A DNA stretch of 64,000 bases from Gammaproteobacteria bacterium (GCA_018824085.1 JAHJHI010000054.1:7362-71361), one strand, 5' to 3'; counted from the stretch's first letter, positions 24,311-43,242 are shown. Notes: a model not told the origin generated them from the sequence alone. Made by a program: numbers and translations.

Positions 24311-24355
24311 TTGACAGCGACGCTGCCTTCTGTATTAATACGAACCATTCTCATT
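24311..24355 (+). promoter_or_regulatory. Sigma70 promoter overlapped by a Fur box (hemP-bfd-bfr)
   Basis: TTGACA at 24311, TATTAAT at 24333, Fur-like AATACGAACCATTCTCATT at 24337-24355. Confidence 0.8.
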
Positions 24356-24874: not shown

Positions 24875-25354
24875 ATGAAGGGCGACAAGAAGGTCCTGCA
24901 GTTTCTTAACAAGCAGCTGTGCAATGAACTGACAGCCATCAACCAGTATTTCCTGCATGCGCGCATGTACAAGAACTGGGGCCTGAAGCAGCTGGGCGAT
25001 CACGAGTACCGTGAATCCATAGAGGAGATGAAGCACGCCGACCTCCTGATCGAACGCATCCTGCTGCTGGAAGGCCTGCCGAACCTGCAGGACCTGCACA
25101 AACTGCTGATCGGCGAAAACGTGCCGGAAATGCTCGGCTGCGACCTGAAGGTCGAGCAGCTGTCGCATGCAACGCTGAAAGACGCGATTTCCTGTTGCGA
25201 AACCGCCGCCGATTACGTGTCCCGTGACCTTTTCCGCCAGATACTCGATGACACCGAAGAACACATCGACTGGCTCGAAACGCAGCTGGAGCTGATCGAC
25301 AAGATGGGCCTTCAGAACTACACGCAGACGGCCATGGGAGAGATCGGCAGTTGA
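24875..25354 (+). CDS. bfr: Bacterioferritin
   Basis: MKGD start, [24 protein letters not shown] (heme Met), [10 protein letters not shown]. Confidence 0.97.
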
Positions 25355-25777: not shown

Positions 25778-26584
25778 ATGAGCAGCGCAGCATTTGCCGG
25801 AACCTCGTTCCCACCCGACGCCGCCCCGCCCGAACGCCCGGCACGTGCAGCAGCCCATGCCGTTCGACGCGGCAATCCCGCCGCGACGCGCATCGGCCTG
25901 CCCCTGCGCACAACGGCGCTGATCGCGGCGTTGCTGGTGCATGCGCTGGCGCTGCTGTGGATCTCCGCCAAGCCGGTGGAACCCGTTGTATTGCCGGTGC
26001 TCATGCAGGCGACGCTGATTGCGCCCGAACCGTTGCCGGTCGCGCCGCCGGAACCGCCCAAGGTCGTCCAGGAGGTCGTGCCGGAGCCGCCCAAACCGGT
26101 GAAAAAGCCGGTTCCGAAGCGCAAGGAAGTGGCGCTGCCCAAGCTGGTGGCCAAGGAAGATGCTCCGAGCGTCCAGACCGCCCCGCCCCAGGCTCCGCCA
26201 CCGCCGGAACCCGTCGCCATCGACGCCGCCCCGGCCGCACCCGTGGCGCCCGCGCCGGCCCCGGTGTCCGCCGCACCGGTCGTCGCTCCGCCGCCACCGG
26301 TCAGCCCGCCCCGCTTCAATGCCGACTATCTGGTGAATCCGGCTCCCGCCTATCCGCCAATGTCTCGGCGCATGGGTGAAGAAGGCAGGGTGCTGCTGCG
26401 CGTCATGGTGGAAGCCGACGGCACGCCGTCCAGCGTGGAAGTGCGCACATCGAGCGGCTTTCCGCGACTGGATCGCGCAGCGCAGGAGGCCGTACGCAAG
26501 TGGAAATTCGTGCCGGCACGGCGCGGTGAGGATGCCGTGGCCGGTGCAGTAAACGTGCCCATCGACTTCGGGCTGCGTGGATGA
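25778..26584 (+). CDS. tonB: Energy transducer TonB
   Basis: TM anchor with VH motif, Pro-rich linker, YPPMSRRMGEEGRV, SSGFPRLDRAA. Confidence 0.93.
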   Translation: MSSAAFAGTSFPPDAAPPERPARAAAHAVRRGNPAATRIGLPLRTTALIAALLVHALALLWISAKPVEPVVLPVLMQATLIAPEPLPVAPPEPPKVVQEVVPEPPKPVKKPVPKRKEVALPKLVAKEDAPSVQTAPPQAPPPPEPVAIDAAPAAPVAPAPAPVSAAPVVAPPPPVSPPRFNADYLVNPAPAYPPMSRRMGEEGRVLLRVMVEADGTPSSVEVRTSSGFPRLDRAAQEAVRKWKFVPARRGEDAVAGAVNVPIDFGLRG

Positions 26585-26594
26585 TTTGACCCGC

Positions 26595-26633
26595 ATCGCC
26601 GCCGGCGTACACTGCGCGGCGATCGATTTTTTT
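26595..26633 (+). terminator. Terminator-like hairpin between tonB and exbB
   Basis: ATCGCCGC/GCGGCGAT stem followed closely by seven T. Confidence 0.5.
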
Positions 26634-26662
26634 GTATCTGGCTTCCCTCAGGAGACTGCTGA

Positions 26663-27436
26663 ATGAATGATTCCCTTGGTTTTGCGCACTTTCTGGCAAA
26701 TGCAGACGGTGTTGCGACCACCATCCTCGTGCTGATGGTCTTTGCATCGGTCGGTACCTGGTTCCTCATCGTGCTCAAAGGCATCGTTGCGGTACGCCAG
26801 CGCAGCGCAAGCAGCCGCTTCATGGACCGTTTCTGGAACGCTCCGTCGCTGGAAGACGTTGCCCGTTACATGGGCGCAAACGGTGTCACGGACCCGTTCT
26901 CGCATCTCGTTCACGAAGGCTTCAGCGCTGTGGAGACACTGCGCAGCGGCGTCGCCGGAACACGTGGCCTGATCGCCACCGGCAGCGCCGACGAGTTCCT
27001 GACGCGCGCGCTCAAGCGTTCGATCGAACGTGATCGCAGCCGCATGGAGTATGGCCAGACCTTCCTCGCGTCAGTCGCGTCGAGCGCCCCCTTCATCGGC
27101 CTTCTCGGCACCGTGTGGGGCATCTACCACGCACTGCTGGCCATCGGCATGTCGGGTCAGGGCACGCTGGACAAGGTCGCCGGACCGGTGGGCGAGGCGC
27201 TCATCATGACGGCCATCGGCCTGGCGACCGCCATTCCCGCTGCGCTGGCATTCAACTTCTTCGCCCGATCGACCCGCAACGTCATGGCCGAGCTGAACAG
27301 CTTTGCGCACGACGTGTTCGTGATGCTGTCGACCGGCGTCAAGGACAGCGGCGCAAACGACCCGAAGGCCACCGGCGACCGCGTGCTGTCGCTGGTTGAA
27401 AGCGGCCGCGCGGCAATCCGTCCGGCAACGACCTGA
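26663..27436 (+). CDS. exbB: ExbB
   Basis: ASSAPFIGLLGTVWGIY, VGEALIMTAIGL; follows tonB. Confidence 0.93.
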   Translation: MNDSLGFAHFLANADGVATTILVLMVFASVGTWFLIVLKGIVAVRQRSASSRFMDRFWNAPSLEDVARYMGANGVTDPFSHLVHEGFSAVETLRSGVAGTRGLIATGSADEFLTRALKRSIERDRSRMEYGQTFLASVASSAPFIGLLGTVWGIYHALLAIGMSGQGTLDKVAGPVGEALIMTAIGLATAIPAALAFNFFARSTRNVMAELNSFAHDVFVMLSTGVKDSGANDPKATGDRVLSLVESGRAAIRPATT

Positions 27437-27449
27437 ACCGGAGCACAAC

Positions 27450-27869
27450 ATGGCCTTCGCAAGTTTCGAACAGGACGATGACGGACCGATGGCGGAAATC
27501 AACATGATTCCGCTGATCGACGTGATGCTGGTACTGCTCATCATTTTCATGGTGACCGCGCCCTTGCTCACGCACGCCGTCAAGGTTGATCTGCCCAAGG
27601 AATCCACCGCTGCGAATCAGTTGCCGCCGGAGAACATCCAGATTGCGATCGGGCCCGATGAACAGCTGTACTGGGCCGGCGAGAAGATCGATGACGCCAC
27701 GCTGAGGGCGCGGCTCGAAGAAGCAGCCGCCCGCGACAAGACCGCCGAGATCCAGCTTCGCGCAGACCAGAACGTGCCCTATCGCTCGGTGGCCCATGTC
27801 ATGAGCGAAGCGGCCCGCCTCGGTCTCACACGCATCGGCTTCGTGACCGATCCCAGCGCGGCGAAGTAA
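27450..27869 (+). CDS. exbD: ExbD
   Basis: EINMIPLIDVMLVLLIIFMVTAP, LRAD. Confidence 0.93.
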   Translation: MAFASFEQDDDGPMAEINMIPLIDVMLVLLIIFMVTAPLLTHAVKVDLPKESTAANQLPPENIQIAIGPDEQLYWAGEKIDDATLRARLEEAAARDKTAEIQLRADQNVPYRSVAHVMSEAARLGLTRIGFVTDPSAAK

Positions 27870-28087: not shown

Positions 28088-28132
28088 TTGACTGTCCGCG
28101 CATCGCGTGATTGAATGCGAATCGTTCTTATT
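28088..28132 (+). promoter_or_regulatory. Promoter with Fur box for the small ORF-rpsD2-PEP-CTERM-receptor operon
   Basis: TTGACT at 28088; Fur-like AATGCGAATCGTTCTTATT at 28114-28132. Confidence 0.75.
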
Positions 28133-28250
28133 CATAAGAGCGATTTGCCAGCTACCTGCCCCCCCGCAGGACTCCGCCAGCCTCCCTTGTACGTCCCACG
28201 TGACCACCGCGCACATGCCTGCGCCCGTCACCACTACGGAGGATGCATCG

Positions 28251-28496
28251 ATGACCCCCGAACAGAACCCTGCGGGCGAAGCCAGTCCCAGCACGCTTGC
28301 CGCCGCCACGCTGTTCGTGATGACGCGCTTTGCCGAACGCCCGTGCCCGGAAGTCGCCCAGATGGTGATCCGCCATCTCGAGGTCGTTGCCGACGACGAT
28401 CGCGCCGACCCGCTGATGCGCGAGGTCTGCGGCGCGCTGATCAACCGCTGGACCCTGCACACCGTCGGCGATCTCGCGCTGCGCCCCACTCATTGA
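28251..28496 (+). CDS. Small hypothetical helical protein (81 aa) with Cys/His residues
   Basis: GGAGG RBS 8 nt upstream of the ATG; first gene after the Fur box; TLFVMTRFAERPC...RHL...EVCGALINRW. Confidence 0.7.
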   Translation: MTPEQNPAGEASPSTLAAATLFVMTRFAERPCPEVAQMVIRHLEVVADDDRADPLMREVCGALINRWTLHTVGDLALRPTH

Positions 28497-28520
28497 CGAC
28501 CGCACCCACCCGGAGAACAC

Positions 28521-29135
28521 ATGTCCCGCTATACCGGCCCCCGTCTGCGCATCGTCCGTGCGCTCGGCACTGACCTGCCCGGCCTGACAAGAAAAACGCC
28601 GTCCAATCGTCCGGCACCGCCGGGCCAGCACGGCAGCCGTCCCAACCGTCGCAAGTCGGAGTTCGGCGCCCAGCTGATGGAAAAACAGAAGCTGCGCTAC
28701 AACTACGGCCTGAATGAAACGCAACTTCGCGGCGTGTTCCGGGAGGCCGAGCGCTCCCGTCTGCCGACCGGCGAAAAACTGGTCGAGCTGCTGGAACGCC
28801 GGCTCGACAACATCGTGTTCCGCGGTGGCCTCGCGCCGACGATTCCGGCTGCGCGACAACTCGTGCGTCATCGTCACGTACTGCTGAACGGCAAGCGCGT
28901 GAACATCCCGTCGATCCGCCTGCGCGTCGGTGACACCATCACGGTGACCGAACGCGGCCGCAAGGTGCAGAGCGTTGTCGACGCCTTGGCCAATGCGCCT
29001 CTTGAGCGCGCCGAGTGGATCGTGTTCGATGAGGCGACACTCAGCCTGCGTCTGGCCCATCTGCCACCGGGCGACGCCACGCCGTTCGCATTCGAAGCCC
29101 AGAAAGTCGTGGAGTTCTACGCCCTGCGCGTGTGA
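28521..29135 (+). CDS. rpsD: 30S ribosomal protein S4 paralog outside the alpha operon
   Basis: MSRYTGPR, PPGQHG, EKQKLRYNYGL, LLERRLDNIVFR, AARQLVRH, VVEFY. Confidence 0.93.
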   Translation: MSRYTGPRLRIVRALGTDLPGLTRKTPSNRPAPPGQHGSRPNRRKSEFGAQLMEKQKLRYNYGLNETQLRGVFREAERSRLPTGEKLVELLERRLDNIVFRGGLAPTIPAARQLVRHRHVLLNGKRVNIPSIRLRVGDTITVTERGRKVQSVVDALANAPLERAEWIVFDEATLSLRLAHLPPGDATPFAFEAQKVVEFYALRV

Positions 29136-29378
29136 GCTTCATGTGCCCGGTCCGCGACACGGATCGCGGACACCCCGAGCCAGCCAGACCCGGTCATTCG
29201 TGGTCAGCCAGTCATGCATCCCCGGAAGGAGAACGCGATGACCGCTGACCACAGCCGATTCGACCCGCAAGCAAACCGTCACATTCCGTCGCGCCCGCCG
29301 CGACAACAGGCACGCGCCGGCCACCGCAACCCGCACGGTCGCGACACCTGTTCAACCCATTACAGAGAGAGGTCCACC

Positions 29379-30137
29379 ATGCTGCAGAAACACCTTCGTA
29401 CCAGCGCAACACGTGCACTGATCGCCGTTGCAACCATTGCCGCAACCGGTCTGGCACACGCCAACGCCACGCACAGCGCCTTCAGCGATCCCGCCGATTC
29501 GGTCGCCACGGACGGTTTCAACAACCTGACCTCGGCCCGCCTCACAGCCGCTGATCTCGTCGCGGGCGTCGCGTCGAACACGGAAACGGACGGCAATGCG
29601 GTGCTGACCAGGACGTCGGGCGGGGCATACCCGGCGTCGTCGGGCCTGTATCAGTGGAGCGGCAGCGGATCGACCTTCGCAATGTCGGTCTCCAACGCCG
29701 TTGATGGTCTGACCGGCATCGTGTTCCAGAGCTACATCAACGTCAGCACAGGTGCCAATGGAATCTTCGGGCTGCTGTCGGCGGACAACCTGCCTCGCCT
29801 CAACTTCAACGGTGGCGAACAGTTCCTGCTTGCCTCGACGCAGACGAGCGAAAACCTGGGCTACACCGACTTCTTCACCGGCCAGTTCGTTGCATCGGAT
29901 CCGAACAACCCCAATCACGTCACCTTCACGTGGGACTTTGCCAGTCTCGGCGTCACGGTGCCGGTCGACAGCTTCACCATCACGTTCGCGACCGACAACC
30001 ACGCCCAGACCACAGCGTTCCAGCTCGATCAGTTGTCGGTTGCCGCGCCGGTACCCGAGCCGCAAACGGCTGCGATGCTGCTCGGAGGCATGGCTGTGAT
30101 CTCGCTGATCGCCCGTCGCCGCAAGAACCTGAACTGA
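29379..30137 (+). CDS. PEP-CTERM surface protein 1 (alternative in-frame start at 29238)
   Basis: Signal peptide; C-terminal VPEPQTAAMLLGGMAVISLIARRRK. Confidence 0.9.
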   Translation: MLQKHLRTSATRALIAVATIAATGLAHANATHSAFSDPADSVATDGFNNLTSARLTAADLVAGVASNTETDGNAVLTRTSGGAYPASSGLYQWSGSGSTFAMSVSNAVDGLTGIVFQSYINVSTGANGIFGLLSADNLPRLNFNGGEQFLLASTQTSENLGYTDFFTGQFVASDPNNPNHVTFTWDFASLGVTVPVDSFTITFATDNHAQTTAFQLDQLSVAAPVPEPQTAAMLLGGMAVISLIARRRKNLN

Positions 30138-30151
30138 TAGCCCCTCCGGAA

Positions 30152-30183
30152 CGCGGGCGGCTTCCTTGCGGGAGCCGCCCGCG
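30152..30183 (+). other. Strong intercistronic hairpin with no U-tract
   Basis: CGCGGGCGGCTTCC-TTGC-GGGAGCCGCCCGCG. Confidence 0.65.
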
Positions 30184-30214
30184 TCCTGTCCACCTTCGCC
30201 GCTCTCCGCACACC

Positions 30215-32542
30215 GTGAAAACGCATAGATTTGTCTGCGTGTCGCTGCTCGGCACCCTCCTGTTGCCGACGATCTCCGTCGGGCAGGACGCATCCCGTGA
30301 CGAGGATGTCACCACGCTGCCCGAGGTCGAAGTACGGGACAAACGGGAATTGCGGCGCGCGCCGGATGTGGAGCTGCCGTCTGACCGCCCGGTCACCACG
30401 ATAACGGCTGAAGCAATAGAACGCCGGCAAGCTGACACGATATTCGACCTTCTGCGCGACACACCCGGAGTTGGCGTCAATGGCGGACCGCGCGCCAGCG
30501 GCATGAAGTTCAATCTGCGGGGTTTCTCGGACAACGAAGACGTGCTGTTCAAGATTGACGGCGCAGTCAAGGGTTTCGAGAAATACCGCTTCGGCAGCGG
30601 CGTCTTCATTGAACCCGAATTGCTCAAGGCGGTGGAAGTGGAAAGAGGGCCGTCGGTCAAATCCGGCTCCGGAGCGCTGGGCGGCACTGTTTCGGCAACC
30701 ACGAAGTCGGCTGCCGATTACCTCGCACCGGGTCAGCGCATCGGCAGCACACTGAAATACGGCTACAACGCAAACAACGCCGAGCGGCTGCGCATGCTCA
30801 CTGTCTATGGCCGGCCAAGCGGGTATCTCGATCTCGTTGCGTCAATCGCGCTGCGCGATTCGGACGACATTCGCCTGCCCGACCGCAGCCGGCTTTCCCT
30901 GACGGCCACTCATTCCGAAAGTCGCTTCGCCAAAGCCACCATCTACGCGACCGATGCACTGACGGTGGAGCTGAGTCAGACCATGTACAAGAGCGGTCCC
31001 GAGCGCACGCCCTACGACGCTACCGCGGGCGGCCCGGGCGGATTCGGCGTGGTCGAGCGAACGATTGAAGACACCACGACAAATCTTCGCGTGAATTACA
31101 CGCCGGAAGATTCATGGATTGCACTTCGCGCGACACTTGCATATGAAGAAACCGACCTGAATGACGTACACCGGAGCCAGCAGAGCAATGTGTGCGTGAC
31201 ACCACCCATGTTTCCTCCCTCGCAGCGCGTCGATCGCTGTGACGATCATTGGCAGTACGCGATCTGGACGGCCGAAGTTTTCAACGACACGCACTATGAT
31301 TTCGGCGAGCTGAAAGGCGTGCTGTCGATCGGCTACCAGGGGATACGTAACCGTCGCGATATCTCCCGCATCCGTTCGGGGGCACGAACCGATGAAGACA
31401 TATCGCGGGGTGGTTTCGTCGCCGCACAGCCCCCGGGGAACAAGATTTCGGACGCACTCATCGTCGAGAACGCTTTCACGTGGCGCGATATCACCATCAC
31501 TCCTGGCGCGCGAATGGACCGCTATCACGTCAGTGCCATGGGGCATACCCGCACCATGATGATTGAAGCCGGTCAGTCACCGGACATCCGGTTTTCCAGA
31601 GTCTCGCCTGCGATTGCCATGACCTGGCGCATTCCCGATAGCGACTGGTCAACAACCCTGCGCTACAACGAAGCGTTTCGTCCGCCGCTGATCGACGAGT
31701 ATTTCGCGGCTGGCAGCGAGTCGGCAAGCCGGTGCATAAAAACCAGCGGCAGAGCGAATCTGCCGGGCCACCCCGTACTCGATCCGCTACCGTTGTACGA
31801 CCGCTCCGGTGTCGGCCTTCCCTATGATCCCGCCCTCGATCTCGCGCCGGACAACGGGATATGCGGCGCGCTGTACCGCCCGCAAGAATCCTCAAATCAT
31901 GAATTGATATTCGCGTGGATGCCGAATCCGGTGGCCCCGACGGACGGCCGCTGGCGGGCACGCGCAACGTATTACGACATCCATACCCGCAACAAGCTGG
32001 ACTCCATCTCCAATATCGGCGGCGCAATCGGCCAGCCGGGCACCGAAAGACGCAAAGGCACCGAGCTCGAAATCAGCTATGACGGGATTCGCTGGTTCTC
32101 GTCGGTGAACTGGTCGCAAATCACCGGTCGCATCGTCGACCCGGTCGCCGGCACCGACTACGTGCTTTATGGCGTACCCGGGGACACACTGAGCATCAGC
32201 GCCGGATTTCGCGGATTCGACGGTCGCGTCGAAGCGGGCCTGCGCATGCGCGACATTGCCGACCGACTCGCCACGGAACCCAGTCAGCCCACCGATTGCT
32301 GGCGCGCTGGCTCTCAGCTCGTTCCCGGCCTTGGATCAAACAAGATCCGCCTCGGCACCCAGCATGGCGTACGCCTGCTCGACCTTTTCGCCAGCATGCA
32401 GGTCACGTCCGACACGGTATTGCGCCTGAACGTCGACAACATCACCAACGAGAACTATTGCCTGCCGGACGGCTTCGCCGGCTCGGTCGGCATTCAGGCG
32501 CCGGGCCGCAGCGCCAGAGTGTCGCTGACGATGAGCTTCTGA
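30215..32542 (+). CDS. TonB-dependent heme/hemoglobin-family receptor
   Basis: Signal peptide, TonB-box-like TLPEVEV, plug NLRG...DG, VEVERGP, FRAP-like AFRPP, C-terminal GRSARVSLTMSF; adjacent to hmu genes. Confidence 0.85.
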   Translation: MKTHRFVCVSLLGTLLLPTISVGQDASRDEDVTTLPEVEVRDKRELRRAPDVELPSDRPVTTITAEAIERRQADTIFDLLRDTPGVGVNGGPRASGMKFNLRGFSDNEDVLFKIDGAVKGFEKYRFGSGVFIEPELLKAVEVERGPSVKSGSGALGGTVSATTKSAADYLAPGQRIGSTLKYGYNANNAERLRMLTVYGRPSGYLDLVASIALRDSDDIRLPDRSRLSLTATHSESRFAKATIYATDALTVELSQTMYKSGPERTPYDATAGGPGGFGVVERTIEDTTTNLRVNYTPEDSWIALRATLAYEETDLNDVHRSQQSNVCVTPPMFPPSQRVDRCDDHWQYAIWTAEVFNDTHYDFGELKGVLSIGYQGIRNRRDISRIRSGARTDEDISRGGFVAAQPPGNKISDALIVENAFTWRDITITPGARMDRYHVSAMGHTRTMMIEAGQSPDIRFSRVSPAIAMTWRIPDSDWSTTLRYNEAFRPPLIDEYFAAGSESASRCIKTSGRANLPGHPVLDPLPLYDRSGVGLPYDPALDLAPDNGICGALYRPQESSNHELIFAWMPNPVAPTDGRWRARATYYDIHTRNKLDSISNIGGAIGQPGTERRKGTELEISYDGIRWFSSVNWSQITGRIVDPVAGTDYVLYGVPGDTLSISAGFRGFDGRVEAGLRMRDIADRLATEPSQPTDCWRAGSQLVPGLGSNKIRLGTQHGVRLLDLFASMQVTSDTVLRLNVDNITNENYCLPDGFAGSVGIQAPGRSARVSLTMSF

Positions 32543-32750
32543 ATGAAAATTCATATATCCGCATCGCGCCGCCACAGCGAGAATGCTGCGCGCCTCGGGT
32601 TTTCGACGCGCCACGAATGACATGGGAATGAACGGCGCGTTGCATGCCTGAACACCTCCTTGCACAGAAATTGGACACCCGTACACGAGAACCGGCACAA
32701 TCACGCCGGGAAACGGCCGCAATCATGCGCGTTGCACGAATTTCGACGCA

Positions 32751-32766
32751 TGGCTCGGCTCTTGCT
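32751..32766 (+). promoter_or_regulatory. Sigma54 -24/-12 promoter
   Basis: TGGCTCGGCTCTTGCT (GG-N10-GC). Confidence 0.55.
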
Positions 32767-32836
32767 CAGGAAAATCCGGCTCCCGCCGCATTGCCGTGCG
32801 GGCCGTACCCCGCCTGACCTGCAGGAGGTATTGACC

Positions 32837-32995
32837 GTGCCCGTTCGTGTCACCCGCCACCCCGGAAAACCGCACTGCCACGCCCTGAAGCCGCCCCCGG
32901 CATGCCGGAGCGATTCATGGGGAGCGCGCAGCGTTCGTCGCCGGCGATGGCGGCCGGCACCCGCATCGCGCACCGTCGCATCCGTTGCAACCTGA
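32837..32995 (+). CDS. Possible 52-aa ORF or remnant behind a strong RBS
   Basis: AGGAGG upstream of GTG at 32837; no recognisable domain. Confidence 0.3.
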   Translation: MPVRVTRHPGKPHCHALKPPPACRSDSWGARSVRRRRWRPAPASRTVASVAT

Positions 32996-33035
32996 CAGGC
33001 GCACCATTGGTGCGCGCTTACTGATCCATCTACCG

Positions 33036-33407
33036 ATGCCACACCCTTCCGATCCGGACTGCCTGGCAAACATGTCCGACGCCACCCCCTTCCCCGCGCT
33101 TGCAGGCAGCATTGATGCCGTCATGCTCATCCTTCGCCTGTCGGCCCGTTACGGCCCGCTGATGTTCCGCCACGGCAACAGTGCAGACGGCACCCAGCCA
33201 CTGTGCAGGCCGGTCGGCTCGATCGCGCTCGACGCCAGCGACGTCAAGCTCGGCGAGATCGCCGGCTGCGAGTACTGGGCTGACGCGACGGTATTCGAAC
33301 AGCTCAAGTCCGGCTCCCTGCTGCTCGACGTACGCGTAGCGAACAGCGCCAGCCCTGACGCACCGGCCCTGAGCGATCGCTTCGTGCTGCGCCGCATCGA
33401 TCACTGA
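33036..33407 (+). CDS. Divergent DUF779-family protein
   Basis: YGPLMF, DG..PLC, SDVKLGEIAGC, LLLDV pattern; the usual GGCC motif is replaced. Confidence 0.65.
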   Translation: MPHPSDPDCLANMSDATPFPALAGSIDAVMLILRLSARYGPLMFRHGNSADGTQPLCRPVGSIALDASDVKLGEIAGCEYWADATVFEQLKSGSLLLDVRVANSASPDAPALSDRFVLRRIDH

Positions 33408-33473
33408 AACAAGCGTTCTCGCTGCGTCGCCCCTCCGCTGCCGCGATTCGCGCGTCACCGCGTTCGTATCCGC

Positions 33474-33502
33474 TTGACACTTCAATACGAATCATTATCA
33501 TT
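33474..33502 (+). promoter_or_regulatory. Sigma70 promoter with Fur box for the small ORF-PEP-CTERM-hmuSTUV operon
   Basis: TTGACA at 33474; AATACGAATCATTATCATT at 33484-33502. Confidence 0.85.
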
Positions 33503-33541
33503 ACTGTTATTGAAACACCGCCGCGCCCGATCGCTCACACC

Positions 33542-33730
33542 ATGGCCGACGCACCCTGCACGCCGGATTCACTGAAAACACGGCTGGTCACCTTGCTGGA
33601 CGAGCTGATACGCCATGACGGCTTCGGCTCGCTCAGCGTCGAGGTGCGCCTGCTCAAGCGCGGCCAGAAGGAAGTCATCATCGACTGCGGCAAGCAATAC
33701 CGCTACGTCATCGATTTCGCACCCGGCTGA
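33542..33730 (+). CDS. Small hypothetical protein (62 aa)
   Basis: First ORF after the Fur box; protein-like sequence LLDELIRHDGFGSLSVEVRLLKRGQKEVIIDCGKQYRYVIDF. Confidence 0.8.
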   Translation: MADAPCTPDSLKTRLVTLLDELIRHDGFGSLSVEVRLLKRGQKEVIIDCGKQYRYVIDFAPG

Positions 33731-33852
33731 AACACACCGGGTAGCAGGCAAGACCTTCCGGCGGCGCGGGGCCGCGGAACATCCAATTGCAACATCCGCC
33801 TGAAACGTCGCCTTCGCGGGGAAGGGATGCATGGCTCGAACCGGGGTTCAAC

Positions 33853-34500
33853 ATGTCATTCCATCACCTGTGCACCACGGGCGCACTGTGCCTGCTCGCC
33901 TCCACTTCCGCTTTCGCGACCTCCGCCGCGTGGGACACCCCGCTCGCCGGATACAGCGGTGACGGCACCTCCAGTGCGGCACCCTGGGCGTCCGGCGCCG
34001 CCTACGCCGAGTGGAACGTTTTCGACAGCGCGTCCAGCGACGCCACGCCGGACATCGCCGGCAGCGGCACGCTCAGCCAGACGTCGCCCGGCGCAGGCGC
34101 CTTCCTGACCGGCAGCGGCAACATCTACAGCGCAGGCGGCGGCGCGGCCTTCTCGATCGATCTCGTCTCCTCGCTGACCGGCTCCTACGACATCTGGCTG
34201 CGCGTCGCCACCCAGGGCACCGCGGCCGACAGCGTCGCGACGCTCAACGGCATCGCGGCGACGAAGCAGGTGTCATTCAGCGCCGTGCTGGGCGGCTTTG
34301 GCGGCAGCGAAGAAGAAGCCTACTGGCACTGGACCGTATCCAGTCCGCTCGCGCTGCAGTTCAGCTTCGGCAGCTCGGAAGCGCACATGAGCCTCGACCA
34401 GCTCGCGGTTCTCGCCGCACCGGTGCCGGAACCCGCCACCTGGTTGTCGCTGGCCGCCGGCCTCGGTGTCATCGGCGCACTCGCGCGCCGTCGCGCCTGA
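33853..34500 (+). CDS. PEP-CTERM surface protein 2
   Basis: Signal peptide; C-terminal VPEPATWLSLAAGLGVIGALARRR. Confidence 0.9.
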   Translation: MSFHHLCTTGALCLLASTSAFATSAAWDTPLAGYSGDGTSSAAPWASGAAYAEWNVFDSASSDATPDIAGSGTLSQTSPGAGAFLTGSGNIYSAGGGAAFSIDLVSSLTGSYDIWLRVATQGTAADSVATLNGIAATKQVSFSAVLGGFGGSEEEAYWHWTVSSPLALQFSFGSSEAHMSLDQLAVLAAPVPEPATWLSLAAGLGVIGALARRRA

Positions 34501-34567
34501 TCACGTCCAGCGTTCCCCGGCGTCGCCTCCCGGCGGCACCGACCCATCTTGCGCACCGGAGATTTCC

Positions 34568-35635
34568 ATGCACCAGACAGCCGATCCTGAAAGCCTGTAC
34601 CACACCTTCCATGCGCTGAAAGCCGAGCGCAAGCTGCGCAACCGCGACGCCGCCGCCGCACTCGGCGTGAGTGAAGCCGAAGCCATCGCCAGCGGCGTCG
34701 GCCGCGACGCGGTGCGTCTGCGCGCGCCTTTCGACGCACTGTTCGTGCGCCTGCCCGAAGTGGGCGAAGTGATGGCGCTCACCCGCAACGAAGCCGCCGT
34801 GCATGAAAAGACCGGCCGCTTCGAAACGATGTCCGGCGACGCCAAGGTCGGGCTGGCACTCGGCAGCGCCATCGACCTGCGCATCTTCTATTCGCGCTGG
34901 CGCTTCGGCTACGCCGTCAGCGAGCCGGACGCGGAAGGCATCAAACGCAGCCTGCAGTTCTACGACGCACAGGGCAACGCTGTGCACAAGGTATTCGCGC
35001 GCGCCGGCACCGATGTCGACGCCTGGGCCAGGCTGGTGAGCGACTTCACCGACGACAACCAGCGGGCCGGCGAACGCGTGGAAGCAGCCGCCACCACCGC
35101 CCCGTCCGACGAAAAGCCGATCGAAGCGGTAGACGTCGACGCCTTCCGGCGTGACTGGCTGGCGATGCAGGACACGCACGATTTCTTCCCGTTGCTGCGC
35201 CGCCATGGCGTATCGCGCCGTCAGGCGCTGGCGCTGGCGCCGGAAGGCCACGCGCAGCGCATTGATCCGTCACAGTTGCGGCCGCTGCTCGAACAGGCTG
35301 CCGCCGATGGTTCATCCATCATGTGCTTCGTCGGCAACCCCGGCATGATCCAGATCCACACCGGTCTGGTGCGCCGCATCGAAGTGATGGGCCCGTGGCT
35401 CAACGTGCTCGACCCCGGCTTCAACCTGCACCTGAGGCAGGATCTCGTCGCCCAGGGCTGGATCGTTCGCAAGCCGACGTCGGACGGCATCGTCACGTCG
35501 ATCGAACTGCTCGACGCGGACGGTGAAACGATTGCGATGTTCTTCGGCGAGCGCAAGCCCGGCCAGCCGGAACGCGAGGACTGGCGTGCACTGGTGGCCG
35601 GCGTGAGCGACGCGCCGCAACCCGTGGCGGCATGA
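34568..35635 (+). CDS. hmuS: Hemin-degrading/trafficking factor HmuS/HemS
   Basis: RDAAAALGVSEAE, MALTRNEAAVHE, QFYDAQGNAVHK, THDFF, FVGNPGMIQIHTG, FFGERKPG. Confidence 0.95.
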   Translation: MHQTADPESLYHTFHALKAERKLRNRDAAAALGVSEAEAIASGVGRDAVRLRAPFDALFVRLPEVGEVMALTRNEAAVHEKTGRFETMSGDAKVGLALGSAIDLRIFYSRWRFGYAVSEPDAEGIKRSLQFYDAQGNAVHKVFARAGTDVDAWARLVSDFTDDNQRAGERVEAAATTAPSDEKPIEAVDVDAFRRDWLAMQDTHDFFPLLRRHGVSRRQALALAPEGHAQRIDPSQLRPLLEQAAADGSSIMCFVGNPGMIQIHTGLVRRIEVMGPWLNVLDPGFNLHLRQDLVAQGWIVRKPTSDGIVTSIELLDADGETIAMFFGERKPGQPEREDWRALVAGVSDAPQPVAA

Positions 35636-36471
35636 TGCGGCGGGCCGTCTTCGCCGCACTGTGTGCGTTTTGCTGCGCAGCGCTGGCCGATGCACCACAG
35701 CGGCTGGTCACGGTCGGCGGCGCGGTGAGCGAAATCGTCCACGCGCTGGGCGCGGCGCAGCGCATCGTCGCCACCGACACGACCAGCATCTGGCCGCCCT
35801 CGCTGCTGGCGCTGCCCAAGGTCGGCTACCAGCGCACGCTGGCGGCGGAAGGCGTGCTGTCGATGCGTCCGACGCACCTCATCGCCACCGCCGATGCCGG
35901 CCCGCCGGTCACGCTCACGCAGCTGCGCGGCGCCGGCGTGCAGGTCATCCAGCTGGACGAAGGCCATCGCGCAGCCCAGGTGAGCGAGGCCATACGCAAG
36001 GTTGCTGCCGCACTGTCGCTGGAGGACGCGGGGCGCGAGCTTGCGCAGCGTTTCGACGCCGACTGGGCCGCGGCACAGGCCGACGTGCGCGCGCTGCCCG
36101 GACGCCCGCGCGCGCTGTTCATCCTCGACCACGGCGGCAGCAATCCGATGGTCGCCGGCGACGACACCGCCGCCGCCGCGATGCTCGGCTACGCCGGCGC
36201 GGACAACGTGATGAGCGGGCGTTTCCGCGGCTATCGGCCCTTGACGCTGGAAGCGGCGCTGCTCGCCGCGCCCGACGTCATCGTCACGACCGACGAAGCC
36301 ATCGCCGCGGCCGGCGGGCGCGCCGCCTTTCTTGCGCGCTCCGGTCTGTCCGCACTGCCGGCCGCACGCGCCGGCAAGCTGGTGAGCCTCGACTCGCTGC
36401 GCATGCTCGGCTTCGGACCGCGCCTGCCGGGTGCCGTGCGCGCACTCGCGCAACAGCTGCACGCACGATGA
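35632..36471 (+). CDS. hmuT: Heme ABC transporter periplasmic protein
   Basis: VGGAVSEIVHALG, VGYQRTLAAEG (heme Tyr), LGFGPR. Confidence 0.93.
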   Translation: MMRRAVFAALCAFCCAALADAPQRLVTVGGAVSEIVHALGAAQRIVATDTTSIWPPSLLALPKVGYQRTLAAEGVLSMRPTHLIATADAGPPVTLTQLRGAGVQVIQLDEGHRAAQVSEAIRKVAAALSLEDAGRELAQRFDADWAAAQADVRALPGRPRALFILDHGGSNPMVAGDDTAAAAMLGYAGADNVMSGRFRGYRPLTLEAALLAAPDVIVTTDEAIAAAGGRAAFLARSGLSALPAARAGKLVSLDSLRMLGFGPRLPGAVRALAQQLHAR

Positions 36472-37517
36472 GCGACGCCGCACTTGCTCCGCCCTTCATC
36501 CGTGCGCACGGACGCACGCTGTGGCTGCTGGCGGCCGCCCTCGTGGCCGCACTGGTGCTCGCACTGGGCAGCGGGGCGGTCGCCATTCCGCCCGCCACCG
36601 TCATCGCCACGCTGCTCGGCGCGCACGACGACGCCCAGACTTCACTCGTGATCTGGAGCCTGCGCGTGCCGCGCGCGCTGCTCGGCATCATCGCCGGCGC
36701 CGGCATGGGCATCGCCGGCGCGGCGATGCAGGGACTGATGCGCAACCCGCTGGCTGACCCTGGCCTGGTCGGCGTGAGCAGCGGCGCCGCGCTTGCCGCA
36801 GCCGTCGTCGTCGTATTCGGGGAGCGGGCGATGAGCACCGGCGGCTGGGCCGCTGCCGCACTGCTGCCGGTGGCCGCCTTCACCGGCGCCGTGCTGACGA
36901 CGGCGCTCGTCTATGCCGCCTCGCGCCGCAACGGGCGCAGTTCCGTCACCCTCATGCTGCTGTCCGGCATCGCCATCAACGCACTCGCGCTGTCCGGCAT
37001 CGGCCTGCTGATGTTCATGGGCAGCGACGCACAGATACGCACCTTCACGTTCTGGACGCTGGGCAGCGTCGCCGGCGCCACGTGGCCCGGCGTCATCGCG
37101 GCCGGCTGCGCGGTCGGCCTCGCGCTGTTCGCGCTTTCCCGCAAGGCGGGCCCGCTCGATGCACTGGCGCTGGGCGAGGCGCAGGCGGCGCACCTGGGCG
37201 TCGCCGTCGGCCCGCTGAACCGCGCCTGCGTCGTGCTGATCGCCCTGTCGGTCGGCGCGACGACGGCACTCACCGGCAGCATCGGTTTCATCGGCCTCAT
37301 CGCACCACACGTCGCGCGTCGTCTGGTCGGCCCCGGTCATCGCCAGCTGCTGCCGGCCAGCGCGCTTGCCGGCGCCCTTCTCGTGCTGCTCGCCGACAGC
37401 GCCGCACGCACCTGGGCGGCACCGGCGGAATTGCCCATCGGCGTGCTCACCGCGCTGTTCGGCGCGCCCTTCTTCATGTTCCTGTTGCGCCGGCGCGTCG
37501 GCGCCGAAGGAGGCTGA
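36468..37517 (+). CDS. hmuU: Heme ABC transporter permease
   Basis: LRVPRALL, QGLMRNPLADPGLVGVSSGA, IGFIGLIAPH, ELPIG. Confidence 0.94.
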   Translation: MSDAALAPPFIRAHGRTLWLLAAALVAALVLALGSGAVAIPPATVIATLLGAHDDAQTSLVIWSLRVPRALLGIIAGAGMGIAGAAMQGLMRNPLADPGLVGVSSGAALAAAVVVVFGERAMSTGGWAAAALLPVAAFTGAVLTTALVYAASRRNGRSSVTLMLLSGIAINALALSGIGLLMFMGSDAQIRTFTFWTLGSVAGATWPGVIAAGCAVGLALFALSRKAGPLDALALGEAQAAHLGVAVGPLNRACVVLIALSVGATTALTGSIGFIGLIAPHVARRLVGPGHRQLLPASALAGALLVLLADSAARTWAAPAELPIGVLTALFGAPFFMFLLRRRVGAEGG

Positions 37518-37518
37518 C

Positions 37519-38304
37519 ATGCTGAGCGCCCATCAACTTACGGTGAGCGCGGGCAAACGCCTGCTGCTTGACCGCGTCGACCTGTCGCTGCGTCCCGGCG
37601 AGCTGCTTGTGCTGGTCGGACCGAATGGTGCCGGCAAGACCACGCTGTTGCGCGCGCTGTCCGGCGACATCGGCGCCGCACTGCATTCGGTGTCGTGCAA
37701 CGGCCGCCCGCTGTCCGGCATTCCTGCGGCCGAACTGGCCACGCTGCGTGCCGTCCATTCGCAGCAACAGCGCAACGATCTCGATTTCACGGCGCGCCAG
37801 GTGGTCGAACTCGGACGCTTTCCGCACAACGGCGGGCGACCGGGCAGCGTTGATCGCGCCATCGCGCGCTCGGCCATGGCGCTGACCGGCTGCACCGAGC
37901 TGGCCGAACGCATCTGCGCGACGCTGTCCGGTGGCGAACAGGCACGCGTTCATCTGGCGCGCGCGCTGGCGCAGATCTGGCACGGCCCCACCGGTGCGCA
38001 CTACCTGCTGCTGGACGAGCCGGTTGCCGCGCTGGACATCATGTGGCAGCACCGGGCGCTGGCCTGCGCGCGCGAGCGCACCCGCAGCCACGGCACCGGC
38101 GTGCTCGCCATCGTGCACGACCTCAATCTCGCCGCACGCTACGCCGACCGCATGGTATTGCTGGCCGACGGCCGCATTCAGGCCGACGGCCGCGCGTTCG
38201 ACGTGCTGCACTCGACGGCGCTGGCACGGGCTTTCGGCATCCGCTGCCGCGTGCTGGACGACCCGCTCGGAGAAACGCCGGTCGTCGTCACCGAGCCGGC
38301 CTGA
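37519..38304 (+). CDS. hmuV: Heme ABC transporter ATPase
   Basis: GPNGAGKT, LSGGEQARVHLARALAQ, LLLDEP. Confidence 0.94.
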   Translation: MLSAHQLTVSAGKRLLLDRVDLSLRPGELLVLVGPNGAGKTTLLRALSGDIGAALHSVSCNGRPLSGIPAAELATLRAVHSQQQRNDLDFTARQVVELGRFPHNGGRPGSVDRAIARSAMALTGCTELAERICATLSGGEQARVHLARALAQIWHGPTGAHYLLLDEPVAALDIMWQHRALACARERTRSHGTGVLAIVHDLNLAARYADRMVLLADGRIQADGRAFDVLHSTALARAFGIRCRVLDDPLGETPVVVTEPA

Positions 38305-40761: not shown

Positions 40762-40780
40762 GTTGAGAATGGTTTTTATT
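40762..40780 (-). promoter_or_regulatory. Fur box upstream of feoA
   Basis: Minus strand AATAAAAACCATTCTCAAC. Confidence 0.65.
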
Positions 40781-41022: not shown

Positions 41023-43242
41023 ATGAAGAAACACGCTCCGCCGCAGCCGCTGTCGCTGGCTGCCGCCATGCTGATGGCGCTTTCAAATACCGCCATCGCT
41101 GACGACACCGTCAAACAGACCGACCCGACCGCGACGCTGCCCGAAGTCAAGGTGCGCGACGCGAGGGAACGTCCGAATTCGCCCAACACCGGCTATCAGG
41201 CCGGCGTCATCCGCTCCACGAAGACGAAACAGCTGGCCAAGGACATTCCGCAGGCGATCACGACGGTGACCGAGCAGCTCATGCTCGACAGCAATTCCGA
41301 CACGATGAAGAGCGCGCTGCGTCACGTCGCCGGCCTGACCTTCAATTCGGGCGAAGGCGGGCGCATCGGCGACAACATCATGCTGCGCGGCTTCTACTCC
41401 TTCGGCGACCTCTATCTGGACGGCATTCGCGACGTTGCGCAGTACAACCGCGAAGTCTTCCACGTGGAACAGATCGACATACTGCGCGGCTCGGCCGCCA
41501 TGCTGTTCGGCCGTGGCCAGGCCGGCGGCGTCATCAACCGCGTCAGCAAGGAACCGGGCCTGGTCGACCACACGGAGGTGTCGGCCACCGTCGGCAGCTA
41601 TTCCTACGGCCGCCTCACCGCCGACGTGAACAAGGTGCTCGGCGAAAACATGGCGCTGCGCATCAGCGCGATGAAGACGGACGCGGAAAGCTCGCGCCGC
41701 GGCGTTGAAACCGACCGTGAAGGCCTGGCACCCACGCTGCGCTGGGGCATCGGCACCGCCAACGAATTCTCGATCGGTCACCTGTACCTGTCGACCGACG
41801 ACGTGCCGGATTTCGGCGTGCCCTTCGTCGCCACTCCAGGCGCCGTGACCGCAACGGGCGTGAAGCGCAGGCCGCTGGACGTGCCGGCAAGCCGCTTCTA
41901 CGGCACGCCCTCGGACTACGAGAAGAACGACACGAACATCACGACCGGCAGCTGGACGCACCGCTTCTCGCAAGATACCGAGCTGAGGACGGTTGCACGC
42001 TTTGCCGACTACAAGCGGGCGCTCTGGGTCACCCAGGCGATACTGGTGGGGGCAGACACCTCAACGGTGAACGATTCGTCGGTAATCCGCCGCAGTCAGA
42101 AGGCCCGTGGCGGGCACGAACGCACCGCCACGCTGCAGAGCGACTTGACGACGAAGTTCGACGCGGCCGGCATGAAGCACGAAGTGCTCGTCGGCGCCGA
42201 ACTGCTGAAGGAAAAGGCCGATCGTTGGAACTACACGGCGCTGACGGCCGGAGAACAGGCCGCCCTGAATACAACCGTCGGCAATGCGAACTCCGATCCG
42301 GTTCTGCCGGCAGGCTATGGCAACCGTACGCACAATAACCCGGCCTCTTATGACGGCGACTCGATCGGCGTCTATGCGCAGGACCAGATCGAATTCATTC
42401 CGCAGTGGAAGTTGCTCCTCGGCATTCGCCACGACCGCATGGATGCCGATTACACGCGACAGGCTGGCGGCATCACGACCGAAACGACACTGAAGTTCAA
42501 CGAGTGGAGCTATCGGAGCGGTCTGCTGTATCAGCCGGACGATCAGTCGTCGTACTACCTTGCATGGAGTGATTCGTTCAATCCGACCGCCGATCTGTAT
42601 CAGTTGAACAACGGCGTCGAATACGACGCGGAGCGCAGCCGCACGATCGAGCTGGGTACCAAGTGGGAACTGCTGGACGGCGCGCTGTCGTTGCGCACCG
42701 CGCTGTACCGCGCAACCAAGTTCAACGAGCGAAACACCGACCTGGAGCAGCCGAACATTTCCGTGCTGTCCAAGGAACGGCATACCGACGGTTTCGAGAT
42801 TGAAGCCGCCGGCCGCCTCACGAGCCGCTGGGACGTGTTCGCGGGCGTCGCGCTGATGCGCTCGCGCATCGACGACGTGTTCGTCGGGGTCAACAACCCC
42901 AACATGGTAGGGCAGCGGCCGCGCAACACGCCACCGTACACCGCCAATCTCTGGACGACCTATCGCGTCGGTGAAAGCTGGCGCGTCGGTGGCGGCATTG
43001 AAGCCAAGGGCAAGCGTCTCGCGTATGGAACGGGCGGCACCAATCCGATCTCGATGGCCCGCGTACCGGACTTCATCCGCGCCGACCTGATGCTGGCCTA
43101 CGAGCAACCGCGCTACAGCGTGAAGCTGAACGTGCTCAACGTGTTCAACAAGCGCTACTACGAGTCGGTCTATGAAAACGGCGGCTTCACCGTGCCGGGT
43201 ACCGAACGCGCGTTCCAGCTGACCACCACGCTCAAGTTCTGA
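41023..43242 (+). CDS. TonB-dependent siderophore receptor (Fiu/PiuA-like)
   Basis: TLPEVKV, DIPQAIT, GEGG..GDNIMLRGF, YLDGIRD, terminal Phe; followed by piuC. Confidence 0.9.
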   Translation: MKKHAPPQPLSLAAAMLMALSNTAIADDTVKQTDPTATLPEVKVRDARERPNSPNTGYQAGVIRSTKTKQLAKDIPQAITTVTEQLMLDSNSDTMKSALRHVAGLTFNSGEGGRIGDNIMLRGFYSFGDLYLDGIRDVAQYNREVFHVEQIDILRGSAAMLFGRGQAGGVINRVSKEPGLVDHTEVSATVGSYSYGRLTADVNKVLGENMALRISAMKTDAESSRRGVETDREGLAPTLRWGIGTANEFSIGHLYLSTDDVPDFGVPFVATPGAVTATGVKRRPLDVPASRFYGTPSDYEKNDTNITTGSWTHRFSQDTELRTVARFADYKRALWVTQAILVGADTSTVNDSSVIRRSQKARGGHERTATLQSDLTTKFDAAGMKHEVLVGAELLKEKADRWNYTALTAGEQAALNTTVGNANSDPVLPAGYGNRTHNNPASYDGDSIGVYAQDQIEFIPQWKLLLGIRHDRMDADYTRQAGGITTETTLKFNEWSYRSGLLYQPDDQSSYYLAWSDSFNPTADLYQLNNGVEYDAERSRTIELGTKWELLDGALSLRTALYRATKFNERNTDLEQPNISVLSKERHTDGFEIEAAGRLTSRWDVFAGVALMRSRIDDVFVGVNNPNMVGQRPRNTPPYTANLWTTYRVGESWRVGGGIEAKGKRLAYGTGGTNPISMARVPDFIRADLMLAYEQPRYSVKLNVLNVFNKRYYESVYENGGFTVPGTERAFQLTTTLKF

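Follow-up and report, generated by a model that had tools for sequence, protein, structure and literature searches.

PEP-CTERM β-sandwich proteins as putative receptor accessories in a candidate Fur-repressed heme-acquisition locus of Methyloversatilis

We analysed a stretch of 64,000 nucleotides from a Gammaproteobacteria bacterium (GCA_018824085.1 JAHJHI010000054.1:7362-71361), hereafter the window, in which two proteins with PEP-CTERM tails, PEP1 and PEP2, are encoded among genes for a TonB-dependent receptor (TBDR) and for the heme transport system hmuSTUV. We found that PEP1 and PEP2 belong to one family whose relatives in other genomes lie, with few exceptions, next to a TBDR gene, and we consider it probable that they are functionally coupled to this receptor under iron control. 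Regarding the mechanism as a whole, we lean towards a Fur-repressed heme-acquisition locus in which an exosortase-sorted β-sandwich protein would act as a receptor accessory. That the PEP proteins themselves bind heme seems to us possible but doubtful; the term "receptor accessory protein" is well supported, whereas "hemophore" is one of several readings. The whole layout from tonB to feoA is common to nine Methyloversatilis genome loci (L001-L009), and for this reason we assign the window to a Methyloversatilis species.

A protein family linked to TonB-dependent receptors

PEP1 (29379-30137, plus strand) consists of a signal peptide, a domain of about 200 amino acids and a PEP-CTERM tail, and PEP2 (33853-34500, plus strand) of a signal peptide, a β-sandwich spanning approximately residues 25-190 and a tail of the same kind. 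Their pairwise identity is 28%, and their family profiles align with an hhalign probability of 98.9% (E 3e-17, 196 columns); thus, PEP1 and PEP2 are two branches of one family. The PEP2 branch comprises 110 database clusters at 90% identity and the PEP1 branch 19, and a profile search over 1.84 billion representatives returned 770 clusters at E <= 1e-10, of which 175 reached E <= 1e-30. Pfam holds no model for the β-sandwich domain, and a sequence search of the PDB gave no match for the PEP domains or for orf81 and orf62, the two small open reading frames (ORFs) of the locus. A preliminary description of this DNA, made from the sequence alone, had proposed that the two proteins form a surface-displayed heme-binding family in the position of hemophores. 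From this interpretation, the homology of the two proteins, their linkage to TBDR and hmu genes and the Fur boxes upstream hold up well, but heme binding and the hemophore role find no support other than gene position, as discussed below.

The synteny of the family was followed from two sides. From the side of the PEP proteins, the proteins of the window were mapped onto 53 species-representative genome loci with PEP2 homologs, located with a subset of 13 sequences, an alignment of 30 being too diverse for this purpose. A family member lies immediately 5′ of a TBDR gene in all of these loci but one, a Phycisphaeraceae contig (L053). Within the same set, orf62 is located 100-400 nt upstream in 43-47 loci, hmuS is found in 30, and 25 carry at least two tandem copies of the family. 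From the side of orf62, 66 of 80 metagenome loci had sufficient downstream DNA, and in 60 of them a family member comes next, followed by a TBDR and/or hmuSTUV. The linkage to hmu and TBDR genes that the preliminary description had proposed to look for across genomes is therefore present in both directions (52/53 from PEP2, 60/66 from orf62). It is seen in Methyloversatilis, Aquabacterium, Methylophilaceae and other Burkholderiales, so that the homologs cannot be described as generally unlinked to heme loci.

In Aquabacterium, Methylobacillus, Methylovorus and other Burkholderiales, a Fur box usually comes first, followed by orf62, one to three PEP genes, the TBDR gene and hmuSTUV. In Methyloversatilis, the system is split into two units, as it is in the window. 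These units had been described as two parallel operons, but they are better regarded as halves of one system, given that unit A has a receptor without an ATP-binding cassette (ABC) transporter and unit B has an ABC transporter without a receptor.

The pairing of PEP gene and receptor extends to how they are exchanged and how they diverge. For instance, in two Methyloversatilis loci (L008 and L009), the flanking genes are 80-94% identical to those of the window, whereas the PEP gene and the TBDR gene have both been replaced, the former by one whose product is 41% identical to PEP2, and not of the PEP1 type, and the latter by one whose product is 33-35% identical to the TBDR of the window. The PEP gene and the TBDR gene are exchanged jointly, as a cassette. 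Over 51 pairs, the distance matrices of PEP proteins and adjacent TBDRs are correlated (r = 0.78, Mantel p = 0.001), with a partial correlation of 0.80 given orf62 and a correlation of 0.20 between PEP proteins and orf62, values that have to be read bearing in mind that orf62 is short and slow-evolving, and hence a weak proxy for phylogeny, and that adjacent genes are co-inherited anyway. One could thus argue that the linkage is mere genomic hitch-hiking with no functional meaning, as genes inherited or transferred jointly would inflate a mirror-tree correlation. Nevertheless, the linkage persists over several families of Betaproteobacteria despite the rearrangement of hmuSTUV, which may lie before the module, after it, in divergent orientation or not be there at all, and the Fur box and orf62 are retained ahead of the module. 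We consider hitch-hiking extremely unlikely.

Fur boxes and expression

Unit A is preceded by a promoter region with a TTGACT −35 hexamer (28088-28093) and a Fur-box-like site, AATGCGAATCGTTCTTATT (site A, 28114-28132), and unit B by the promoter TTGACA-16-TATCAT (33474-33501), which matches the sigma-70 consensus at 11 of 12 positions and is overlapped by the Fur box AATACGAATCATTATCATT (site B, 33484-33502), all on the plus strand. We scanned the 64-kb window with a 19-nt betaproteobacterial Fur consensus, AATGAGAATCATTCTCATT, which was chosen after sites A and B had been seen. Each of these two sites scores 16/19 and is one of three with such a score in the 64 kb. Just five sites reach at least 14/19 (24337, 28114, 33484, 40762 and 40894), and all five are intergenic and ahead of iron genes in the iron cluster. 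The remaining three comprise the site at 24337 (16/19), between a cation-efflux gene and the bacterioferritin gene, and those at 40762 (14/19) and 40894 (15/19), in the intergenic region between the divergent feoA and second TBDR genes.

Conservation points in the same direction. Site A forms a conserved island amid diverged upstream DNA in five Methyloversatilis loci, and in about 44 of 47 genome loci from several genera, a Fur-like box, the counterpart of site B, precedes orf62 by 35-90 nt. Judged by sequence, the predicted Fur boxes exceed chance, and their placement ahead of both units, as first described, is upheld by their scores, their conservation as islands and the fact that the top sites of the window all fall in intergenic DNA of iron genes. 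PEP1 has no Fur box of its own, the best score in the 243-nt gap upstream being 9/19, so it would presumably depend on the orf81 promoter. A PEP1 homolog from an unrelated metagenomic organism (P0126) does have its own Fur box (15/19), behind a TTGACA hexamer, and a TBDR gene follows.

There is also some information on expression. An "iron processing cluster" comprising two TonB-dependent transporters, hmuTUV, tonB, feoB and bacterioferritin has been reported in Methyloversatilis sp. S146-33 (10.64898/2026.07.27.740964). Its gene set is that of the window and, according to the same preprint, expression of the entire cluster increases when the siderophore cyanochelin B is added; the authors interpret the cluster as a candidate siderophore importer (10.64898/2026.07.27.740964). 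Such induction by a siderophore, although reported in a preprint and for another Methyloversatilis strain with this gene set, argues against a lack of iron-dependent expression. Metatranscriptome assemblies from soil and sediment cover a related Methyloversatilis locus from end to end, mostly at an even depth to which DNA could have contributed, and a single contig reaches from orf62 through PEP2 into the 5′ end of hmuS. In the same run, the PEP1 contig has a depth of 27 and the receptor one of 0-4, but contig depth is a poor measure of expression and DNA may contribute to it. Wastewater RNA runs yielded few contigs for the window, at low depth, and we treat all of these RNA data as weak support.

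The receptor and the transport genes

The TBDR (30215-32542, plus strand) has plug and barrel domains and belongs to the heme/hemoglobin/transferrin clade. Its nearest solved relatives in a PDB sequence search are PhuR, ShuA and HasR, followed by TbpA, and TBDR and hmuSTUV are contiguous in about 30 related loci. HasR and TbpA both work with partner proteins. For the barrel histidine in the FRAP/NPNL region, no alignment of the TBDR was obtained. A BtuB-like receptor for vitamin B12 was also considered, but it is countered by Rfam, which finds no cobalamin riboswitch or other element in the region, including the 243-nt gap before PEP1 and the stretch at 32543-33071 downstream of the receptor.

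The genes hmuS (34568-35635), hmuT (35632-36471), hmuU (36468-37517) and hmuV (37519-38304) follow PEP2 on the plus strand. HmuS has clear HemS/ChuX (284 bits) and ChuX_HutX (207 bits) domains and HmuT matches Peripla_BP_2 (108 bits), whereas hmuU and hmuV are assigned by their position, by their translated ORFs and by tblastn, in which related loci show matches to them in this order as well. A receptor-energizing module, tonB-exbB-exbD, is encoded by plus-strand ORFs at 25778..27869, outside the stretch that the preliminary description covered.

Heme binding and other readings

We modelled PEP2 with AlphaFold2 from a 98-sequence alignment. The model is an all-β sandwich, covering approximately residues 50-190, followed by a C-terminal transmembrane helix, and it has a predicted local distance difference test score (pLDDT) of 90.6 and a predicted template-modelling score (pTM) of 0.82. 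The conserved residues of the PEP2 family are W45, W54, P66, T86, G89, N90, Y92, G122, L131 and S180-L181-D182. The PEP1 branch has its own invariant His209, and a G-(N/L)-(I/L)-Y motif is common to both branches.

Several observations weigh against the PEP proteins as hemophores or against heme as the ligand of the system. In a Foldseek search against the PDB, the PEP2 model had no match at E <= 1e-3, and no hemophore (HasA, HmuY, NEAT or HphA) is among the 50 matches listed; the structure prediction that had been proposed as a check on the hemophore idea thus did not yield a hemophore fold. The best matches are weak (E ~0.01, template-modelling score ~0.3) and correspond to carbohydrate-binding modules (CBM6/35/61), tailspike domains and jelly rolls like that of tumor necrosis factor. 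His, Met and Cys are conserved at no position of the PEP2 family alignment, and none is kept across the family as a whole. The Tyr shared by the two branches is also found in most of the distant homologs that we aligned, including three that are unlinked to receptors, and we rejected it as a system-specific heme ligand for this reason.

The family and its genomic context add further points of this kind. In the long members of the family there are TSP_3 or dockerin-like segments but no heme-related domain. Five distant homologs (Algisphaera, the Phycisphaeraceae contig and three metagenome contigs), which are 33-35% identical to PEP2 where this was measured, have no TBDR or hmu neighbors. Taken together, these unlinked homologs and long members indicate that the fold is a generic extracellular module; only a betaproteobacterial subclade, with about 38% identity to PEP2 or more, is recruited to receptor loci. 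Methylophilus loci consist of orf62, PEP and TBDR genes only, without adjacent hmuSTUV, and heme is therefore not a proven substrate of the Methylophilus receptor. The TBDR of the window scores 243.1 bits against the heme/hemoglobin family TIGR01785, below the curated cut-off of 316.85, although this is still its best-scoring TBDR subfamily. Thus, its earlier classification as heme-type depends on its PhuR, ShuA and HasR relatives and on the hmu context, which do support it, and not on the family model, which does not. The plug residue His86 of ShuA aligns to an Arg in the TBDR, with a Tyr beside it, so the canonical set of heme ligands is not demonstrably kept. To our knowledge, there is no established route by which PEP-CTERM proteins cross the outer membrane. 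Finally, the PEP-CTERM genes of the cluster go unmentioned in the accessible part of the S146-33 preprint (10.64898/2026.07.27.740964).

With regard to known domains, the search of PEP1 and PEP2 against Pfam and NCBIfam at E <= 0.1 gave no match beyond the tail, apart from one sub-threshold hit of PEP1 to CbbQ_C (E 0.048; 14.3 bits, cut-off 20.6). This search was part of a scan of nine proteins encoded between 28107 and 36471, with the hmuU and hmuV ORFs outside it, in which no HasA-, HmuY- or NEAT-like family was matched, consistent with what had been stated in the preliminary description. The heme-binding claim of that description had gene position as its backing, and neither the fold nor the conserved residues lend it support.

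It is possible, then, that the PEP proteins are true receptor partners whose ligand is not free heme but a glycan, a hemoprotein or another iron-carrying macromolecule, which would make them lectin-like co-receptors of the TbpB/HpuA type. The sole fold resemblances are to carbohydrate-binding modules, the conserved Trp, Tyr, Asn and Asp residues are typical of sugar-binding faces, His, Met and Cys are not conserved, TbpA is among the relatives of the receptor, and the Methylophilus modules do without adjacent hmuSTUV. However, those fold matches are non-significant, HmuS has its HemS/ChuX domains, and in about 30 of the 53 loci, the module and hmuSTUV are joined in the arrangement known from classical heme operons. 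Overall, we regard a non-heme ligand as unlikely.

Another possibility is that these are matrix or adhesion proteins, induced by iron starvation, that remodel exopolysaccharide (EPS) or the floc surface and have no role in transport. PEP-CTERM proteins are classically linked to EPS and flocs, and Haft et al. reportedly tied them to EPS and floc formation in 2006. The wider fold family, being a generic extracellular module found in varied contexts, would suit such a role. Furthermore, Methyloversatilis strains grow as flakes (10.64898/2026.07.27.740964). What a matrix role leaves unexplained is the adjacency to a TBDR in 52 of 53 loci, the tandem duplication ahead of the receptor, the joint replacement of PEP and receptor genes and their co-divergence, and we find it quite unlikely.

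At the other extreme, the β-sandwich proteins could be a new class of hemophores or heme co-receptors and the first known case of nutrient capture by exosortase-displayed proteins, in which a conserved aromatic face would bind heme or a hemoprotein and the proteins would dock onto a dedicated TBDR subclade, with orf62 and its invariant His and Cys as a heme-responsive replacement of HemP. We put this fuller version forward only tentatively, as it seems to us rather less probable than its opposite.

Sorting signals

The tails of both PEP proteins consist of a PEP motif, a transmembrane helix and an Arg cluster. They score above the cut-offs of PF07589 (25.0 bits for PEP1 and 27.6 bits for PEP2, against 20.7) and TIGR02595 (18.5 and 21.2 bits, against 16). 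In the named NCBIfam PEP-CTERM subfamilies (MHFG, FxDxF, QFxxD, NF038129 and others), only the C-terminal 30-50 residues match, with 19-30 bits against cut-offs of 50-100. The Sec signal peptides, MLQKH...TGLAHA|NA in PEP1 and MSFHH...STSAFA|TS in PEP2, were read by eye from the sequence. A putative exosortase in the source genome would agree, indirectly, with the large number of PEP-CTERM proteins in the annotation of Methyloversatilis sp. S146-33 (10.64898/2026.07.27.740964).

Some members of the family have a VPVPAA/VPLPAA...RRK tail, similar to VPLPA-CTERM, in place of PEP-CTERM (L124 5848-6669, L106 6254-7147, L078 6304-7146, L134 575-1270 and L135 6306-7001), and these are still located between orf62 and TBDR or hmuS. 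This suggests that an exosortase-type signal is retained while its flavor varies. One of these loci, L078, has a second copy (7403-8650) with an additional domain of about 190 amino acids and without an anchor.

The C-terminal helix might also remain uncleaved, in which case the PEP proteins would stay in the inner membrane, facing the periplasm, and serve there as a heme relay or chaperone or, together with orf62, as a sensor. The PEP2 model does show a C-terminal transmembrane helix, there is no established export route across the outer membrane, and exosortase sorting is here predicted from the tails. On the other hand, nearly all members have a bona fide PEP-CTERM or VPLPA-CTERM sorting signal, the cytoplasmic stub of about four residues is too short for signaling, and HmuT is already the periplasmic carrier. 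An inner-membrane role of this kind is, in our opinion, very unlikely.

Small proteins and other genes of the locus

The inventory of the preliminary description (two Fur-box-like sites, ORFs of 81 and 62 amino acids, an S4 paralog, two PEP-CTERM proteins, a TBDR and hmuSTUV) is confirmed in full, with all elements on the plus strand, but one further gene between the two units, a DUF779-like ORF, had been overlooked. The GC fraction of the region is 0.61-0.73.

The first gene of unit B, orf62 (33542-33730, plus strand), encodes a small protein of the cytoplasm and lies where hemP would be in a hemPRSTUV operon. It is the most conserved gene of the module, with 60-90% identity across genera and 2647 database matches, and its conservation far exceeds that of the PEP gene downstream. 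Pfam has no family for it, and none of 11 members of the orf62 family matches HemP (PF10636) at E <= 10; orf62 is a positional analogue of HemP in hemPRSTUV and not a member of the HemP family. Its AlphaFold2 model (pLDDT 82) shows a helix packed on a three-stranded sheet. A fold like that of double-stranded RNA-binding domains or SRP14 was also proposed by Foldseek, but the match was non-significant (E > 0.05) and was not used. Residues His25 and Cys49 are invariant, which suggests metal or heme binding, as far as sequence conservation can tell. It is probably a small regulatory or handling factor.

The first gene of unit A, orf81 (28251-28496, plus strand), encodes another small cytoplasmic protein, of 81 amino acids and with no Pfam or NCBIfam match. 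It is 77-90% identical within Methyloversatilis, and homologs with 34-37% identity lie directly 5′ of hmuS in other Burkholderiales (L019 4444-4638, L051 14076-14276, L098, L101 and L112). From these positions, orf81 appears to be a second small protein associated with heme loci.

Next to it, rpsD2 (28521-29135, plus strand) encodes a full-length paralog of 30S ribosomal protein S4 (NF003717, 225 bits; TIGR01017, 205 bits) that lies outside any ribosomal operon, behind the Fur box and orf81. The module also has an S4 paralog beside it in L051 (7912-8520) and L098 (4326-4937), which represent two other lineages of Burkholderiales, and we found no Fur-regulated S4 paralog in the literature.

Between the two units, the TBDR stop codon is separated from the DUF779-like ORF by about 530 nt without an obvious gene (32543-33071). 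This stretch opens with an AT-rich palindromic sequence, TGAATGAAAATTCATATATC, and includes a weak sigma-70-like promoter (32672-32701). The DUF779-like ORF (33072-33407, plus strand; PF05610, E 5e-14) is at the same position in eight of the nine Methyloversatilis loci (L001-L008, but not L009) and in no other genus, and its identity of 54-68% is below that of its neighbors. DUF779 proteins usually adjoin aldehyde dehydrogenases, and what we take to be their Cys-rich stretch reads GNSADGT in the ORF of the window. Its membership in the system is uncertain.

Bacterioferritin is encoded at 24875-25354 on the plus strand, ahead of the tonB module. On the far side of hmuV, the minus strand carries feoB and feoA, and a gene for a second TBDR follows at 41023-43242.

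Related loci

Other loci with family members show arrangements worth recording. In loci of the Methylophilus type, two PEP-CTERM genes on the opposite strand converge on the 3′ end of the TBDR gene (L056 13150-14831, with equivalents in L067, L077, L079, L080, L083, L085, L089 and L091), and in L056 one of the two has a weak Peptidase_M10 match. Among the distant homologs, those of the planctomycete Algisphaera (L054 10001-12803) and of a metagenome contig (L140 6001-8968) are followed by a protein of about 295 amino acids, pseudopilin-like (N_methyl) in L054 and with no Pfam match in L140, and then by a DUF6607 protein, which in L140 comes after one further small ORF; these two loci represent a different conserved neighborhood around the same fold. 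Lastly, in an unrelated metagenomic organism (L141 1291-6730), a pair of PEP1-type and TBDR genes lies beside genes for an imelysin (Peptidase_M75), a di-haem oxidoreductase, a Zip transporter, a ChaN-like heme-binding protein (Cofac_haem_bdg) and a class II fumarase. Most of these neighbors belong to iron-related families, and class II fumarase is a typical member of the Fur regulon.

Proposed mechanism and comparison with known systems

In the mechanism that we propose, Fur would leave the two promoters under iron limitation. Promoter A would then transcribe orf81, rpsD2, PEP1 and the TBDR gene, and promoter B orf62, PEP2 and hmuSTUV. PEP1 and PEP2 would be exported by Sec, and their PEP-CTERM tails would mark them for processing by an exosortase and for placement outside the cell. 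There, they would most likely hold an iron source or present it to the adjacent heme-clade TBDR, in a role that may be likened to that of HmuY, HasA, HpuA or TbpB for their respective receptors. The ligand would pass through the TBDR with energy from TonB-ExbBD, encoded upstream, and then through HmuT and HmuUV, to be handled by HmuS in the cytoplasm. In this scheme, three elements are inferred: that the PEP proteins reach the cell surface, that they associate physically with the receptor, and which ligand they handle.

The closest parallel in gene content is the hemPRSTUV/hmuRSTUV operon of Yersinia, Rhizobia and Burkholderia, which is also Fur-controlled and has a small protein first, a heme-clade TBDR, HemS/HmuS and HmuTUV. 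The present system differs from it in the insertion of one to three genes for exosortase-sorted β-sandwich proteins between the small gene and the receptor, in a small protein, orf62, that does not match HemP in Pfam, and, in the window, in the division of receptor and ABC transporter genes between two promoters with Fur boxes.

In accessory logic and gene order, the system seems analogous to HmuY-HmuR, HasA-HasR, HpuA-HpuB and TbpB-TbpA, from which it differs in fold, anchor and ancestry. For instance, HmuY of Porphyromonas gingivalis is an all-β extracytoplasmic accessory encoded directly 5′ of a heme TBDR in an iron-regulated operon, but it is a lipoprotein with two His residues as heme ligands, whereas the PEP proteins have a PEP-CTERM signal, no conserved His and no match to it in fold or sequence. 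Similarly, HasA is a dedicated extracellular protein for a Fur-regulated heme TBDR, and HasR is among the nearest solved relatives of the TBDR. However, HasA is an α/β protein that leaves the cell by type I secretion, and its signal reaches a pair of extracytoplasmic function (ECF) sigma and anti-sigma factors by way of an extension at the N-terminus of HasR. Neither PEP protein matches HasA, the TBDR of the window has no N-terminal extension, as read from its sequence, and there are no type I secretion or ECF sigma genes among the annotated ORFs. The pairs TbpB-TbpA, HpuA-HpuB and HphA-HphR also have an accessory gene immediately 5′ of a TBDR of the same broad clade, and the members of each pair co-vary; TbpB, HpuA and HphA are nevertheless lipoproteins moved by Slam and built of a handle and a β-barrel, in contrast to the single β-sandwich and predicted exosortase sorting of the PEP proteins.

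The likeness to PEP-CTERM/exosortase systems (EpsH, XrtA) lies in the signal peptide and the tripartite tail scoring above curated cut-offs. The known exosortase cargo is associated with EPS and flocs, whereas here the cargo gene is linked to TonB-dependent uptake and Fur boxes. In the literature, we came across no description that connects PEP-CTERM proteins with TonB-dependent uptake, Fur, heme or hemophores.

Implications

Heme uptake has been worked out mostly in pathogens, in which the partners of the receptors (HasA, HmuY, TbpB/HpuA and HphA) are lipoproteins or proteins secreted by type I systems. The PEP β-sandwich family and the orf62 family are both undescribed; each has hundreds to thousands of members without a Pfam model, and both now have a genomic context. 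This context also suggests that the published "iron processing cluster" of Methyloversatilis may be read again, as a heme system with surface accessory proteins instead of a siderophore importer. If the proposed mechanism is correct, environmental Betaproteobacteria of groundwater, sludge and soil, including methylotrophs and Aquabacterium, would have a receptor-accessory family of their own, and the exosortase pathway would gain a function beyond the biology of EPS and flocs.

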